A stretch of 13,064 nucleotides of DNA. Origin: a virus. This document shows, piece by piece, positions 2,447-12,361 of this stretch. The notes under the pieces are model-generated. The model did not search any database, was not told the DNA's origin, and worked only from the letters and a program-made list of their open reading frames with translations. The stretch lies in the UHGV virus genome UHGV-0254580; one strand, written 5' to 3'. The position numbers and the translations under genes were made by a program. Within the stretch, counting starts at the first letter, position 1. Each line of letters begins with the position of its first letter.

Positions 2447-2753
2447 CTTCTACTCCGGCTTTTTTAGCAGCGAAGCGTTTGATAAGCGAACCAATCGAGT
2501 CAGTACCGATGTAGCCGATGAACACGCTCGTTATATAAGCGAGATTGCTACTTAGTCCGGCGAAGTCGAGAAGGTCACGAATGAACCAGGCGATAATGGC
2601 GCACATCGTTGCGTCGATTACTGTTTTTGTAAACGCACCGCCATTATATCTGCCGCGAAGGTACGCCATTGCAAACGCAAGGATTGCCCCGATGCCTTGT
2701 TCCTTTGCCGCGAGAATGGCGGCTAACAGGTCATGTTTTTCTGGCATCTTCAT
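2430..2753 (-). CDS. S: Holin S (lambda S107/S105-type, class I holin)
   Basis: 107-aa protein [39 protein letters not shown]... with Met1-Lys2-Met3 dual start and three hydrophobic segments; overlaps the R start as in lambda. Confidence 0.9.
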
Positions 2754-2871
2754 GTCTTACCCCCAATAAGGGGATTTGCTCTATTTAATTAGGAATAAGG
2801 TCGATTACTGATAGAACAAATCCAGGCTACTGTGTTTAGTAATCAGATTTGTTCGTGACCGATATGCACGG

Positions 2872-2908
2872 GCAAAACGGCAGGAGGTTGTTAGCGCGAC
2901 CTCCTGTC
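2872..2908 (-). terminator. Candidate intrinsic terminator / stable hairpin in the late leader upstream of S
   Basis: Perfect 8-bp stem CAGGAGGT/ACCTCCTG (extendable to about 10 bp) with a 10-nt loop; on the minus strand it is followed by CCGTTTTGCCC. Lies between the tRNAs and the S start. Confidence 0.4.
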
Positions 2909-2994
2909 ACCCGCTTTCACGAGGTCATGTGTAGAAGGCCGCAGCGTAACTATCACTGATGAATTCAGGATAGCCAGTGGCTACGGCTCAGTTA

Positions 2995-3070
2995 TGGTGC
3001 TGGTTAACGGACTTGAACCGCTACCCATTCGCTTACAAGGCGACTGCTCTACCATTGGAGCTAAACCAGC
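2995..3070 (-). tRNA. tRNA-Thr (anticodon UGU), phage-encoded, with encoded CCA
   Basis: Manual cloverleaf on the minus strand: acceptor GCTGGTT/AACCAGC (7 bp), D-arm GCTC-CAATGGTA-GAGC, anticodon stem GTCGC/GCGAA with loop CTTGTAA (U33, anticodon TGT, A37), T-arm AGCGG-TTCAAGT-CCGTT, discriminator A, CCA. 76 nt. Confidence 0.6.
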
Positions 3071-3075
3071 ATGTT

Positions 3076-3150
3076 TGGCGGGACAGCGTGGACTCGAACC
3101 ACGATAAGAAGGTTAACAGCCTTCCGTAATGACCTTTATACGACTGACCC
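3076..3150 (-). tRNA. tRNA-Asn (anticodon GUU), phage-encoded, with encoded CCA
   Basis: Manual cloverleaf on the minus strand: acceptor GGGTCAG/CTGTCCC (one U-U mismatch), anticodon stem GAAGG/CCTTC (perfect) with loop CTGTTAA (anticodon GTT), T-arm CGTGG-TTCGAGT-CCACG (perfect), discriminator G, CCA. D-stem is only 3 bp. 75 nt. Confidence 0.5.
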
Positions 3151-3213
3151 AAATAAAAAAAGCCACCGTTGCAACTTAAGAGTCACTAACGGCAGCTTAC
3201 CTTCTAATTATGG

Positions 3214-3732
3214 CTAAATGGCTAATTGCATGTCAAGGCTTTTAACAGCAACATGCTTAACTTTCTCAACACGTTTACGCATTTTGAAAGCATTTTGCAT
3301 TGGTTGGTACAAAACAAATAACGACGCTTTCAGGATGTCGTCAATTTCGTTTCTACAGGTTGCCAGTGAAGGTTTTCTCCATCCCTCGCCACCACGTCCA
3401 CACATCTTGCGTGGCTTTGCAGTCGCGTGATAGTAGGATGCAATTGCTCGCTTAGATGAACCATGAGCGTAGTAGCTGAGGAGGATGCCAAAGGCTTTTT
3501 TGTCAATGCACATGACGGAATCGACGACCTGAGAAATCAACATTCCATCATCATCATTACACATTGGCCTTGTCATAATTCTTCCCGGCTCTACGCTCTC
3601 CATGAACTTAGCTATTACGCTGCTCATGCGCTTTTCCAGACGACCTGAATAAACCCATGCACCCCACAGTTCAAGCCAGCCATTCAGCCACTCGTGCTGT
3701 TCTTTGGTGAGGTTTAGTTCTCTTATGCTCAT
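3214..3732 (-). CDS. Putative late-gene antiterminator (Q-position protein; not lambda Q)
   Basis: 172-aa ORF directly after ninH (start overlaps the ninH stop) and upstream of the late leader, tRNAs and S, i.e. the Q position. Sequence does not resemble recalled lambda Q; the assignment is positional. Confidence 0.45.
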   Translation of the reverse strand: MSIRELNLTKEQHEWLNGWLELWGAWVYSGRLEKRMSSVIAKFMESVEPGRIMTRPMCNDDDGMLISQVVDSVMCIDKKAFGILLSYYAHGSSKRAIASYYHATAKPRKMCGRGGEGWRKPSLATCRNEIDDILKASLFVLYQPMQNAFKMRKRVEKVKHVAVKSLDMQLAI

Positions 3733-3917
3733 CGTCTTCCCCTTTTGCCCTGTTTGACCATCAGGACGCCGTTAACTATTACGTGACGTTCGCCTTTGCT
3801 GTCTCGGTTGTACTTGAGCACTGTTCCTCTTGCGCAGGAAAGCATCCTCGCCACTTCGGTCTGATTGCCTCGTGTCTGGATAAGAAGCTCTGGTATCGTT
3901 TGAATTGTGGCGTTCAT
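3729..3917 (-). CDS. ninH: NinH-like small DNA-binding protein
   Basis: 62-aa protein with the segment GNQTEVARMLSCARGTVLKY, resembling recalled lambda NinH (GNQTEVARRLKCSRGTVRKY); start overlaps the rusA stop. Confidence 0.7.
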   Translation of the reverse strand: MNATIQTIPELLIQTRGNQTEVARMLSCARGTVLKYNRDSKGERHVIVNGVLMVKQGKRGRR

Positions 3918-4563: not shown

Positions 4564-4832
4564 TATGGTTCACTCCAGTAATTCTCAATTGCAGCAGCCA
4601 TTCTCTGCATCCACTCTGCCAGCTTTAACGCGGCTTCTCTTTCAGAACCACATTTAGGGAAATCCTTCATTTCCATGCTGGCCTTATATGTTCTGAATGC
4701 CAGGTCTCCGGTAATAACCAGCTCCTGATCAAGCACAGAGCGTTTATTCCGGTGCTGAACGTAATAGACAGATTCAGTCCGCATTTCTTCTCTGTCTTTT
4801 TTGAAGGAAATAAGCTCAGAGAAATCACTCAT
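4563..4832 (-). CDS. Hypothetical nin-region protein (89 aa)
   Basis: ORF translationally coupled to neighbours on both sides (start overlaps the upstream zinc-ribbon ORF stop, stop overlaps the ybcO start); no motif I can assign. Confidence 0.5.
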   Translation of the reverse strand: MSDFSELISFKKDREEMRTESVYYVQHRNKRSVLDQELVITGDLAFRTYKASMEMKDFPKCGSEREAALKLAEWMQRMAAAIENYWSEP

Positions 4833-6359: not shown

Positions 6360-8240
6360 TTAATACTCCGTCACGTTTTCCTGTCGCCACGCCTCGTCAT
6401 ATTCCGATTTCGGCATATTGGCGATGTAGCTATATGGCGATCCTGATTCAAGTTGCAGGAACTGGTGCGATTGCTCGTCAAGGAACAACGGGACACCACC
6501 TTCCCAACCTTCGCCGTTACGTTGTTTTTCAAGCATCAAAACAGATGCCGGAGATGCCAGTAGCTGTTCGTCCTTCTCTGACATCTTTTCACCACTCTGA
6601 ACTCTCTGTAACGCTCTCTCGCGAGCCTTGTTACGCCAGATGATGAAAAGGTTGTCTGTCAGGTCTGTTATCGCTCCAGAGCCTTTTACGTCCATTTTCC
6701 CGGTTGGTTTTTCTTCGCTGTCACCTTTTCGCGAGTGAGTAACGAGAATGACGTGGGAGTTTGTTTTGTTTTTGAAATCGCAAATCGAGTCAACAAACGC
6801 CTTCTGCCCGTTATAGTCATCGTCGCCTATGCCACATTTCATCAGGCTGTCGATGATGAATAACTGGATGCCGTATCGGCGGCGAGCGTAGTCGAATATT
6901 TCGATCAGCCTGTCGGCTTTCGCCGTTCCGGTCAGGCCAAACACCCAAAGTCTTTCGTCATAAAATTTAAATGCAGAGTCAATTTCCAGCACTGGCGGCA
7001 TCTTGCAGCACGTCGCCTGACGGGTAAGTCGCTTAAGGAGAATGCCTGGCTTCAGCTCAAGTGACGCGATGCACGTCTTCACACCCTGACGCATTGCCTC
7101 AAGTGCCATATGCCCGACAACCTCCGTTTTTCCGTGACCGTTCACACCATTGACCAGCGTCAACTCTGCCTCACGAAACTGGAATTTATCTGCCAGAGAT
7201 TCCCACGGTGGATTAAACAGATACTGCTGCTTGCCGTAGAAAGCGTTGATAGTGTCCTGGTAAAACTCTCGCGCGCTGTAGAGTTCTTCAGGATCGAAGT
7301 AGGATGCCGTGCCAATGTACTGCCAGATTTCATCCTCGGTAACACCGTTCATCAGGCATTCGTTGATGTCTTTGTACGGCAGAGTAACAAGACGGCAACG
7401 ATGTTCACCGAGTCGACTTGCGATTTCCCTTGCGGCTTCACGACCAACATCATCAACGTCCATCGAGATGAATATTTCCTCAAACCTGTCGAGGTTGTGA
7501 TACTCAAACTCAATCCACTGCTGCTTAGCGCCTTTCCCGCCACCAAACGGCACGGATAACGCCGAGATGCCGTATTGCGCATAGCTCATACAATCAATTT
7601 CGCCTTCGCAAAGTACAACCGCCCTCACGCCAGCGTCCAGAGCCTGCCATCCGAACAGACAAGGTTCGCAATCACCTTCTGCCATAATGACTTTCTTCCC
7701 GTCCGGGCGCTCAGTGCTGATTCGCTTGACCTGCAACAACTCACCATCGCGTTTGTACGGAATCACCAGAGCATCCAGTTCCCGCTCTCCATTCCACACC
7801 TTGCCGCTGACAACCTCGTAGCGCTTTACGATTTCTGGCGATATGCCACGCGATTGCAGGTACTCAAGATGGGATTCTGTTCTGGTAACGTAGCGGGCGA
7901 TTTTCTTGCGATCAGGTCTGGAGAATTTCTTCTCACGTTTGGCATCGAAATGGTGATCGTCATCCTTGATACCGAGAAATGCTTTCGCTTCCTGCATAGC
8001 CTGATGCAGATTAATTCCACGACATGACATCCACAAATCAAGCATGTCACCGCCGTCTCCCTCAGCGAAATCAGCCCATTTTTTCTTGCCGCTAAGGTTG
8101 ACCTTAAGGCTGTTTCCCTTGTCACCGTTGACGTTACCGGCAACCCACTCATGCCCCTCTTTCTTGCCGTTTGGCAACAGGTGCGGAGCCACCCTGTCAA
8201 CCTGCGCCCAAAGCAGGTCGCTAAGTTCACTTGGTGTCAT
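6360..8240 (-). CDS. Bifunctional replicative DNA primase/helicase (Toprim primase domain + RecA-fold SF4-like helicase)
   Basis: 626 aa. Toprim-like acidic motifs (VVLCEGEIDCMSY; ISMDVDDVGREAA) in the middle; C-terminal Walker A GVNGHGKTEV and Walker B-like LFIIDSLMKC. Occupies the position of lambda P, downstream of the O-like gene. Confidence 0.8.
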   Translation of the reverse strand: MTPSELSDLLWAQVDRVAPHLLPNGKKEGHEWVAGNVNGDKGNSLKVNLSGKKKWADFAEGDGGDMLDLWMSCRGINLHQAMQEAKAFLGIKDDDHHFDAKREKKFSRPDRKKIARYVTRTESHLEYLQSRGISPEIVKRYEVVSGKVWNGERELDALVIPYKRDGELLQVKRISTERPDGKKVIMAEGDCEPCLFGWQALDAGVRAVVLCEGEIDCMSYAQYGISALSVPFGGGKGAKQQWIEFEYHNLDRFEEIFISMDVDDVGREAAREIASRLGEHRCRLVTLPYKDINECLMNGVTEDEIWQYIGTASYFDPEELYSAREFYQDTINAFYGKQQYLFNPPWESLADKFQFREAELTLVNGVNGHGKTEVVGHMALEAMRQGVKTCIASLELKPGILLKRLTRQATCCKMPPVLEIDSAFKFYDERLWVFGLTGTAKADRLIEIFDYARRRYGIQLFIIDSLMKCGIGDDDYNGQKAFVDSICDFKNKTNSHVILVTHSRKGDSEEKPTGKMDVKGSGAITDLTDNLFIIWRNKARERALQRVQSGEKMSEKDEQLLASPASVLMLEKQRNGEGWEGGVPLFLDEQSHQFLQLESGSPYSYIANMPKSEYDEAWRQENVTEY

Positions 8241-8347: not shown

Positions 8348-9208
8348 TCACCTGTCGAAAAACACGTAGCCAGTTTTCGATACGGTGATTGCGGATGATG
8401 GTTTGGATTGTGGTTGAATGGTTTCTGGCTTTTCGTCGTTCCAGCGCTGACCGTTCAGGTAGCTCGATGGTAACAACCTGTCGAATCCGAACTGCTTACC
8501 ATTCCTGCATGCGATGTCTTCTGCCAGCATCGTGGCAAACTCGCTTGCTGTACCCCTTGTAGTTTTACGCCATTCCCTGAACTGTGTTCTGAATGCCGAA
8601 GCCGCGTTTTTCTTCCCGGCTTTCCGCATGCCTGCACACCAGAATATTTCCTCGAATGCCTTGTCGGTTTCTTCGTGACGGTCAGATGATTTTTCACACT
8701 CCGTCCGAACACTTTCGGACATAGTGTTTTTATTATTTCTTTTTTCTTTTGTAATAGTTTCTTTTGTGTGTCCCTGTTTTGGTGACAGCGCTGTCACCGT
8801 TTTGGTGACACTTTTTGTCACCAATGCAGTGACATTATCACCAGAGTAGTGACACCCTTCGATTTGCCATTCTTCGATGTTCTTGTTAGGCCCAATTTGC
8901 TGGCCTTCGCGAAGGATAACCTTCATCGCGATAAGCTCATTCTTGGCCTTGTTTACCTTCTGTCTTGGCAGCCTGGTAATTTGAGCTAACTGACTATCAG
9001 AGATGCGATCCATCTTTTTACCGTAGCCGTATGTTTTACGGCATATGGCGTGGGCAACCTTGCTCTGATTTTTCGTTAAATCTGCGCCGATAAGCTCTTC
9101 ATACAGGGCATTTGCAAGACGGGTATAACCATCTTCAACTTCTGCCACACGACGCTCCACAGGCCGTTGTGAAGGCCTTAAATGTGTTACGGTTGCAAGA
9201 TTACTCAT
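8348..9208 (-). CDS. O: Replication initiator, lambda O-like N-terminal origin-binding domain with divergent C-terminal domain
   Basis: N-terminal region [56 protein letters not shown]...GPNKNIEEW parallels recalled lambda O (DGYARLSNMLLEAYSGADLTKRQFKVLLAILRKTYGWNKPMDRITDSQLSEITKLP...GPNKNISEW). Iterons lie inside the gene, as for lambda ori. Confidence 0.85.
8720..8856. repeat. Putative origin of replication: iteron array (GTGACA/TGTCAC-based, about 23-bp period) plus adjacent AT-rich tract inside the O-like gene
   Basis: 18-bp perfect palindrome GGTGACAGCGCTGTCACC (8781-8798), GGTGACACTTTTTGTCACC (8804-8822), then GTGACATTATCACC and AGTGACAC; immediately adjacent AT-rich tract 8720-8765. 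Confidence 0.6.
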
Positions 9209-10118: not shown

Positions 10119-10805
10119 ATGGATAAATACGAACAAAGACGACTAAGGCTGATAGAGATAAGAGACCGATTCTGTAATGGAAAGGCCTCAGAGTTGGCTC
10201 GTCGAATAGAAAGGGAACCATCATACGTTTCCAGAATGCTGTATCCGGAAGGAAAAAGCGGAAAAAAACGCATTGCTGACGATATGATGGAACTAATTGA
10301 AAAATCTTTTAATCTCCCACGCGGATGGATGGACATGCTTGCAGATGGTAAAGCTGGAGCTACAGACCATCTTGAGTTTGCGGGTAACGTTCGTGCGGGT
10401 TTTGTTCCGGTAATTGGTGAAGCCGTTTTGGGAGTTGATGGCTCAGTGGATATGATTGAATTCAGATCCGGTTGGTTAAGCATCTACAGCGGCGATAACG
10501 ATGCTTACGGTCTGAAGGTTAAGGGTGACAGCATGTGGCCAAGGATTCAGTCAGGAGAATATGTTGTTATTGAACCAAATACGCCAGTACATCCAGGTGA
10601 TGAAGTCTTTGTAAGGACCAAAGACGGTCACAACATGATAAAGATCATGAACAAAACAAGAGACGGTGATTATCAGTTTAGTAGCATAAACAGTGATCAC
10701 CGCCCAATCACTCTTCCTGTTGAAGAAGTTGATAAAATGCATTTTGTTTCAGCTATTGTGAAACACACCAGGTACGTAGACCAGGACGATCTGCCAAAAG
10801 TTTGA
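10119..10805 (+). CDS. cI: cI repressor (N-terminal HTH, C-terminal LexA/S24-peptidase autocleavage domain)
   Basis: 228-aa protein with HTH-like ELARRIEREPSYVSRML and C-terminal S24 features (GDSMWP Ser motif, downstream Lys); divergent from cro across palindromic operators. Not lambda cI by sequence. Confidence 0.9.
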   Translation: MDKYEQRRLRLIEIRDRFCNGKASELARRIEREPSYVSRMLYPEGKSGKKRIADDMMELIEKSFNLPRGWMDMLADGKAGATDHLEFAGNVRAGFVPVIGEAVLGVDGSVDMIEFRSGWLSIYSGDNDAYGLKVKGDSMWPRIQSGEYVVIEPNTPVHPGDEVFVRTKDGHNMIKIMNKTRDGDYQFSSINSDHRPITLPVEEVDKMHFVSAIVKHTRYVDQDDLPKV

Positions 10806-11482: not shown

Positions 11483-11806
11483 ATGGATGCACAAACACGC
11501 CGCCGCGAACGTCGCGCAGAGAAACAGGCTCAATGGAAAGCAGCAAATCCCCTGTTGGTTGGGGTAAGCGCAAAACCAGTTAACCGCCCTATTCTCTCGC
11601 TGAATCGCAAACCGAAATCACGAGTAGAAAGCGCACTAAATCCGATAGACCTTACAGTGCTGGCTGAATACCACAAACAGATTGAAAGCAACCTGCAACG
11701 TATTGAGCGCAAGAATCAGCGCACATGGTACAGCAAGCCTGGCGAACGCGGCATAACATGCAGTGGACGCCAGAAAATTAAGGGAAAATCGATTCCTCTT
11801 ACTTAG
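11483..11806 (+). CDS. N: Antitermination protein N (lambda-type)
   Basis: 107-aa product MDAQTRRRERRAEKQAQWKAANPLLVGVSAKPVNRPILSLNRKPKSRVESALNPIDLTVLAEYHKQIESNLQRIERKNQRTWYSKPGERGITCSGRQKIKGKSIPLT from the internal ATG of track ORF 11351..11806, preceded by AGGAGA; matches recalled lambda N including the Arg-rich boxB-binding N-terminus. Confidence 0.9.
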   Translation: MDAQTRRRERRAEKQAQWKAANPLLVGVSAKPVNRPILSLNRKPKSRVESALNPIDLTVLAEYHKQIESNLQRIERKNQRTWYSKPGERGITCSGRQKIKGKSIPLT

Positions 11807-12361
11807 TTACTTAGATATTGGCCTTGGCTTTATCTCAATATTATATGGATCATAGCTGGCAACTAATTCAGTCCAGTAAATATCCTCAATAGGGAATAAT
11901 ATATGCTTCCCGTTCCATCGGGAAAAAGTTTTGTTCAACACACCAAGCTCAATCAACTCACTAATGTATGGGAATTGTTTTGATGTAACCACATACTTCC
12001 TGCCTTCATTAAGGGCTGCGCACAAAACCATAGATTGCTCTTCTGTAAGGTTTTGAATTACTGATCGCACTTTATCGTTTTGCATCTTAATGCGTTTTCT
12101 TAGCTTAAATCGCTTATATCTGGCGCTGGCAATAGCTGATAATCGATGCACATTAATTGCTAGCGAAAATGCAAGAGCAAAGACGAAAACATGCCACACA
12201 TGAGGAATACCGATTCTCTCATTAACATATTCAGGCCAGTTATCTGGGCTTAAAAGCAGAAGTCCAACCCAGATAACGATCATATACATGGTTCTCTCCA
12301 GAGGTTCATTACTGAACACTCGTCCGAGAATAACGAGTGGATCCATTTCTATACTCATCAA
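11807..12361 (-). CDS. sieB: Superinfection exclusion protein B (SieB), lambda-type
   Basis: 184-aa membrane protein abutting the N stop on the opposite strand; length, position and polarity match recalled lambda sieB; hydrophobic N-terminal segments. Confidence 0.8.
   Translation of the reverse strand: MMSIEMDPLVILGRVFSNEPLERTMYMIVIWVGLLLLSPDNWPEYVNERIGIPHVWHVFVFALAFSLAINVHRLSAIASARYKRFKLRKRIKMQNDKVRSVIQNLTEEQSMVLCAALNEGRKYVVTSKQFPYISELIELGVLNKTFSRWNGKHILFPIEDIYWTELVASYDPYNIEIKPRPISK

Follow-up and report, generated by a model that had tools for sequence, protein, structure and literature searches.

The 13,064-nt viral sequence analysed here, referred to throughout as the window, very probably carries a late-gene switch that follows the phage 21 plan and belongs to a mosaic lambdoid phage, with Q-dependent antitermination at the terminator tR'. 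Judged by its sequence, Q is an ordinary, previously described late antiterminator of the phage 21 type and belongs to the Sf6/L subtype. The cassette formed by Q, the late promoter pR', the Q-binding element (QBE) and tR' is likewise already known: it is annotated in Sf6 and has been discussed for phage L (PMC8022706). The genes of interest lie on the minus strand, where the tRNA genes are followed by genes for a lambda-type S holin, an endolysin, Rz and an HNH endonuclease. The coordinates of the features are collected in Table 1.

Table 1. Features of the late-gene switch and its surroundings in the window, with the evidence for each.
Feature	Coordinates	Strand	Basis and remarks
Q gene	3214..3732	minus	172 aa; predicted late antiterminator of the phage 21 family, Sf6/L subtype
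Diverged 'specificity cassette'	3204..3469	minus	codons ~89-172 (DNA-binding half) and pR' core with repeats
pR' -35 hexamer, TTGACA	3231..3236	minus	scan; same position as the phage 21 -35; Sf6 annotation
Putative Q-binding element, tandem 8-bp repeats AATTAGCC and ATTTAGCC	3227..3220 and 3219..3212	minus	alignment, covariation
pR' -10 hexamer, CATAAT	3207..3212	minus	scan, alignment; phage 21 has AACACT there
Predicted transcription start, +1 (G)	3200	minus	inferred by alignment with the phage 21 aRNA start
Sigma-dependent pause element, -10-like TAAGCT at +2..+7	3194..3199	minus	identical to phage 21
tR' intrinsic terminator	3151..3198	minus	fold; identity to annotated tR'/aRNA
tRNA-Asn (GTT)	3076..3150	minus	ARAGORN; Rfam RF00005, 55.3 bits; annotated in Sf6, SfI and BTP1
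tRNA-Thr (TGT)	2995..3070	minus	ARAGORN; Rfam RF00005, 61.5 bits
Lambda-homologous lysis-gene leader with hairpin 2872..2908	2754..2994	minus	~97% identical to lambda and lambda hybrids over 241 bp
S24-type repressor	10119..10805	plus	followed by cro-like and CII genes

The Q gene and its family

Q is the final gene of the nin region, with NinB, YbcO, RusA and NinH upstream, and its start codon overlaps the NinH stop codon (ATGA). An initial annotation, made from the letters alone, had put a 172-aa protein in the Q position, and this assignment stands: the ORF comes last in the nin region, next to the late promoter. The protein had also been judged unlike lambda Q. In agreement with this, lambda Q had no detectable sequence similarity to it, and in a PDB sequence search at E<=10 all hits were Q chains of phage 21, the lambda Q chain being absent even at this threshold. 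The family, however, which had been called uncertain, could be assigned. Phage 21 Q (PDB 6JNX/6JNY and 6P18-6P1C) matched at E 2e-90 over residues 1-162 of 162, Pfam PF06530 (Phage_antitermQ) at 89.6 bits (1.8e-25; score cut-off 26 bits) and phrog_943 (PHROG 943, 'anti-termination protein Q-like') at 8e-93; no NCBIfam model matched. The profile search against Q families proposed as a check on the initial annotation returned the phage 21 type, and the family matched is an antiterminator family and not one of another kind. In the phage L paper, the phage 21 family is 'type 3' and has 12% identity to the lambda/P22 type (PMC8022706).

Identity to phage 21 Q (Q21, 162 aa) was 97% over residues 1-94 (91/94), 66% over residues 95-162 (45/68) and 84% overall, and Q carries 10 additional C-terminal residues. 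From the 97% identity of residues 1-94 and the published Q21 structures, we infer that Q acts in antitermination and forms a ring at the RNA-exit channel. Residues 15-102 (3427-3690) also gave weaker matches to PHROG 79 and 753 (~5e-11) and to DUF1133 (1.7e-8), and a tblastn search with Q21 produced 32% matches to Q of some lambda-named phages. There are hints in these sequences of an N-terminal module common to several Q types. At the other end of the protein, the -35 hexamer and the Q-binding repeats double as coding sequence for the C-terminal tail VKSLDMQLAI (3214-3246, minus). Relatives have ORFs of 155-176 aa, with the pause element starting 6 to 46 nt beyond the last sense codon; from these lengths and distances, the reach of the ORF into promoter DNA seems to determine tail length.

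Promoter, pause element and terminator at the 3' end of Q

A promoter scan identified TTGACA and CATAAT on the minus strand, separated by an 18-nt spacer, a match to 11 of the 12 sigma-70 consensus positions. This was the sole 11/12 match on both strands of the 13-kb window, for which shuffles gave an expectation of 0.275. The -35 hexamer sits within the Q codons Leu-Asp-Met, the Q stop codon TAG (3216..3214) falls within the spacer and the -10 hexamer starts two bases past the stop. The initial annotation had reported no confident sigma-70 pair. The near-consensus pR' at 3236..3207 overlaps the 3' end of Q and was overlooked because the last ten codons of Q hold the -35 hexamer and the Q-binding repeats, out of sight of a reader who had searched only the gap between Q and the first tRNA gene. 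A late promoter mapping elsewhere had been named as a result that would count against the assignment; in spirit this is not what we found, as the predicted promoter maps to the 3' end of Q. More generally, late promoters of the Q21 family can hide in the final codons of Q, where a search of the gap alone fails.

The same site is annotated in a close relative. The Sf6 record AF547987 marks a promoter, a qut site and tR' on sequence ~99% identical to the window. Its promoter, described as 'nearly identical to phage 21 late promoter', runs from 22 nt before to 7 nt after the Q stop codon and maps to 3236..3207 of the window, and its tRNA-Asn and tRNA-Thr are labelled 'similar to phage 21'. A literature search yielded no usable experimental mapping of the late start site in BTP1 or Sf6.

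In a five-way alignment of the window, Sf6, phage 21, SfI and Nil2, the sequences were identical from the T at +2 onward (TAAGCTGCCGTTAGTGACTCTTAAGTTGCAACGGTGGCTTTTTTTATTTGGG). The phage 21 record AJ237660 annotates a promoter and a 50-nt short RNA ('aRNA', 4652..4701), and the terminated leader RNA predicted for the window is also 50 nt long (3200..3151). The -10-like pause element, whose role is taken from Shi 2019 (PMC6606751) and Yin 2019, had a constant spacing to the QBE in each of the 60 family loci compared. The AJ237660 record itself (locus 601-1120) does not agree with the crystallised Q21 or with SfI: its Q shows a local frame difference around residues 24-28 and has 161 instead of 162 aa, and one base is missing from its downstream QBE repeat (GCAAGT-AGCA). 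These discrepancies are probably sequencing errors in the 1999 entry.

The 63 bp between the Q stop and the first tRNA (3151..3213) are as the initial annotation had given them, and the T-rich run noted directly before the tRNA is present at 3161..3151, where it constitutes the U-tract of tR'. Upstream of this tract, the terminator has an outer stem (3198..3188 with 3170..3160), an inner stem (3186..3181 with 3176..3171) and a tetraloop. Folding of the leader yielded a long interrupted hairpin (3198..3160) followed by U7-A-U3, with a free energy of -20.8 kcal/mol and a z score of -3.5, and the sequence equals the annotated tR' of Sf6 and Nil2 and the aRNA of phage 21. A generic terminator scan of 2700..3800 flagged nothing, and tR' was recovered by direct folding; the scanner missed it because of its long interrupted stem and loop, the loop limit being 3-8 nt. 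An Rfam search matched only the two tRNAs and no curated family covering the leader RNA.

The first base of tRNA-Asn (3150) adjoins the final U of the tR' U-tract (3151). RNase P cleavage of a read-through RNA would free a leader nearly identical to the terminated 50-nt RNA; in Stx phages, short pR' leaders can work as sRNAs (StxS). Among the 54 family loci scanned, 15 had tRNA genes just downstream of Q/tR', most commonly Asn(GTT) (9 loci), often with Thr(TGT), and otherwise Met, Gly or Phe. The tRNA-bearing loci include L087, L089, L095-L098, L114, L125, L126, L131, L133, L134, L137 and L140. The tRNAs look like optional cargo in a recurrent slot after Q/tR', as in Stx phages.

Binding repeats and residue/base covariation

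Between the -35 and -10 hexamers lie two tandem repeats whose TTAGCC cores are 8 bp apart; the downstream repeat includes the Q stop codon and overlaps the -10 hexamer. In the alignment they are base for base in register with the phage 21 QBE, ATTGAGCA/AATGAGCA. The Q21 QBE consists of two TGAGCA direct repeats with C:G pairs at -21 and -13, and two Q21 protomers occupy these repeats, contacting bases through H95, A124, R127 and R128, inserting R113 into the minor groove and touching the backbone through S93, K94 and T125 (Shi et al., PMC6606751). Yin et al. 2019 likewise describe the Q21 site as two 8-bp subsites and report that a Q torus narrows the RNA-exit channel. Compared with Q21, Q of the window retains S93, K94, R113, A124, T125 and R127, and two contact residues are changed, H95R and R128N. 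The combination that specifies DNA recognition in phage 21 (TGAGCA with H95, A124, R127, R128 and R113) is therefore not the one found here. The two substitutions, occurring with TTAGCC repeats, place Q in a distinct specificity subtype that is still inside the Q21 family, and they suggest that its site preference has been altered from TGAGCA to TTAGCC. The initial annotation had expected both the antiterminator family and its engagement site to differ from those of lambda, and this was correct: the family is that of phage 21 and the site is not a lambda site.

The same repeats have been read independently as the QBE of the L-type Q. The phage L protein is described as ~80% identical to Q21 and divergent from residue 94 onward, with three of six contact residues changed, and in its promoter AATTATCC/ATTTAGCC replaces ATTGAGCA/AATGAGCA and overlaps the 3' end of the gene (PMC8022706). 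On this description, the Q allele of the window is the published subtype. The extent of the change was evident in a sliding comparison with SfI, whose Q is 100% identical to Q21: identity was 97-100% from 3738 to 3470, fell to 53-80% from 3469 to 3204 and returned to 97-100% from 3203 to 2934. This drop and recovery indicate that the swap is a discrete cassette of ~265 bp.

For covariation, we assembled 49 family loci from one-genome-per-species contigs together with 10 phage loci, took the pause element as the anchor for each site and cross-tabulated the contact residues with the bases of the downstream repeat. Copies in an IMG/VR scan were only 97-99% identical versions and thus of no use for this purpose. 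A common geometry of -35, two repeats, -10 and TA...T element was shared by all 60 loci. Among 27 distinct combinations, with shared ancestry uncorrected, N at residue 128 was accompanied by T at repeat position 2 in 7/7 and R by G in 18/19, the lone exception at this position being a poorly anchored site (L129). At position 6, again uncorrected for shared ancestry, R95 went with C in 9/10 and H, Y, L or I at residue 95 went with A in 16/17; the lone R95 exception was L095, a Q21-like protein that retains TGAGCA. All four combinations of positions 2 and 6 were present: TGAGCA in phage 21, TGAGCC in Edwardsiella GF-2 and others, TTAGCA in Proteus Pm34 and Morganella, and TTAGCC in the window, Sf6, Pantoea and Yersinia. 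Further classes paired R124 with TGGACA, E124/K128 with TTACCC and Q127 with TGGCAC. Across loci L086-L140, the family thus holds at least seven repeat classes that track residues 95, 124, 127 and 128. This covariation supports the idea that the TTAGCC repeats are the binding site of Q. Two loci with a Q close to that of the window, one labelled as a Cellvibrionaceae MAG (L092; Q 98% identical) and one as a Segatella copri MAG (L097; 83%), have enterobacterial-phage flanks and are probably mis-binned phage DNA.

We lean slightly towards the view that the Q21 family consists of orthogonal Q/QBE pairs with a simple residue/base read-out that are exchanged as ~265-bp cassettes. In such a read-out, the base at position 2 may be set by residue 128 (G with Arg, T with Asn) and that at position 6 by residue 95 (C with Arg, A with any other residue), while residues 124 and 127 may account for the further classes TGGACA, TTACCC and TGGCAC. 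The cassettes appear to be exchanged between otherwise identical N-terminal (polymerase-docking) and pause/terminator modules. If this is true, the Q allele of the window would be insulated from the phage-21-type Q of co-resident prophages such as Stx phages. Naturally orthogonal antiterminator/site pairs, which these seem to be, bear on cross-activation among prophages, including Stx phages that use Q21, and are possible parts for synthetic circuits. The L-type QBE is already published. No family-wide recognition code for Q21 turned up in the literature searched, and the covariation is the one mildly new by-product of the analysis.

The proposed late switch and its relation to known systems

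The proposed mechanism builds on the sequence features, homology and covariation seen in this analysis and transfers to the window, by analogy, the pausing, two-protomer binding and exit-channel ring established for Q21 (Shi 2019; Yin 2019). The early rightward operon ends with Q, and pR' overlaps the 3' end of this gene. Without Q, polymerase would start at about 3200, sigma-70 region 2 would re-bind TAAGCT and cause a pause near +14, and transcription would stop at tR', releasing a leader of about 50 nt comparable to the 6S RNA of lambda and the short RNA of phage 21. When Q is present, two of its protomers, bound to the TTAGCC repeats, would dock on the paused polymerase, and one of them would ring the RNA-exit channel so that only single-stranded RNA could pass; the terminator hairpin could then not form. 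Its 3' arm (about +31 to +41) would be synthesised only after Q loading, and transcription would proceed through tRNA-Asn, tRNA-Thr, S, R, Rz and the late genes.

The late transcript could instead start elsewhere, for example between tRNA-Thr and S, with Q overriding the hairpin at 2872..2908 and the promoter at 3236..3207 being a chance match. In favour of this hairpin are its clean G+C-rich stem of 8-9 bp and the UUUU that comes after it, and the initial annotation had proposed it as the target for Q read-through. However, it folds no better than shuffles (z -1.6), it lies in sequence that in lambda is downstream of pR'/tR', and the promoter scan found no promoter-like site in 2700-3200, while the promoter, QBE and pause element at 3236..3194 keep their geometry across 60 loci and covary with the protein. 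We therefore consider a start elsewhere highly improbable. For the same reasons (lambda homology, fold stability and the empty promoter scan upstream), the hairpin was rejected as tR', and the leader terminator is placed at 3198..3151. The hairpin came in together with the lambda-type lysis genes and has no part in the Q loading site, and the lambda-like character that had been ascribed to S extends to the sequence upstream of it.

Two further readings question the protein. Q might have kept its specificity for TGAGCA or be decaying, in which case the TTAGCC repeats would not be what it binds and the cassette would not work in this phage. Its DNA-binding half is, after all, only 66% identical to Q21. 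Yet the promoter has no TGAGCA repeats, the changed residues are the base-contacting ones and track bases across the family, and the allele occurs with the same repeats in the viable phages Sf6, L, BTP1 and HK629 and in at least 598 IMG/VR stretches at 97-99% identity; we give this reading very little credence. Even less probable, to the point of being negligible, is that the ORF encodes another DNA-binding regulator resembling sigma region 4, for instance an activator of pR', instead of an antiterminator. Although the Q21 fold is similar to region 4 of ECF sigma factors, the N-terminal 94 residues of Q are 97% identical to those of Q21, and the exit-channel ring is made in Q21 by helix H2 and loops L1/L2 (Shi 2019, PMC6606751), elements that we assume to fall within these residues. 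The terminator, moreover, comes immediately after the pause element, as antitermination requires.

The closest phage overall, mEp043, covers 58% of the window at 98% identity. The replication module (6360-8240 and 8348-9208, minus) encodes an O-like initiator (PF04492) and then a 626-aa fusion of Toprim and DnaB-like primase-helicase, and differs from the lambda O/P pair. The leftward operon contains an N-like antiterminator (PHROG 271, 5e-23) and SieB (PF14163, 1e-29), in a region spanning 11483-11806 (plus) and 11807-12361 (minus), and the phage seems to pair early antitermination of the N type with late antitermination of the phage 21 type. A 148-aa ORF (634-1080, minus), located between the genes for Rz and the HNH endonuclease, matched PHROG 6169 only (3.7e-57; function unassigned) and gave no Pfam hit.

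Among the closest known systems are those that share the Q allele of the window. Gene 59 of Shigella phage Sf6, gene 23 of Salmonella phage L, BTP1 q and HK629 Q encode proteins 98-99% identical to Q that differ from it by point changes only. All four phages have the same promoter, repeats and terminator, and Sf6 and BTP1 share the tRNAs. The upstream repeat is AATTAGCC in the window and Sf6, but AATTATCC in L, BTP1 and HK629. R95/N128 contacts with TTAGCC-type repeats were found in Sf6, BTP1, HK629, L092 and L093, and the stretch from Q through the S leader is ~98-99% identical to CurroJimenez_Bas106, vB_EcoP-720R6, HF4s and Sf6.

Phage 21 has the same layout of -35, two direct repeats spaced by 8 bp, -10 and TAAGCT at +2..+7; its terminator is identical, and tRNA-Asn and tRNA-Thr follow there too. 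It differs from the window in its repeats (TGAGCA twice, versus TTAGCC twice), its -10 hexamer (AACACT versus CATAAT) and its spacer (17 nt versus 18), and the Q ORF of the window is 10 codons longer, running through the -35 and the repeats. The lambda leader, at ~190 nt, is far longer than the 50-nt leader predicted in the window. Lambda Q involves NusA and needs a -35-like element that is absent from other lambdoid late promoters (papers including PMC6606751). In Stx phages of the Nil2 and 933W type, tRNA genes and cargo directly follow the Q-controlled terminator, as they do in the window, and Nil2 uses Q21 and an identical tR'. By contrast, the Stx phages carry tRNAs Ile, Arg and Arg with toxin cargo in this place, whereas the window carries Asn and Thr and then lambda-type lysis genes.
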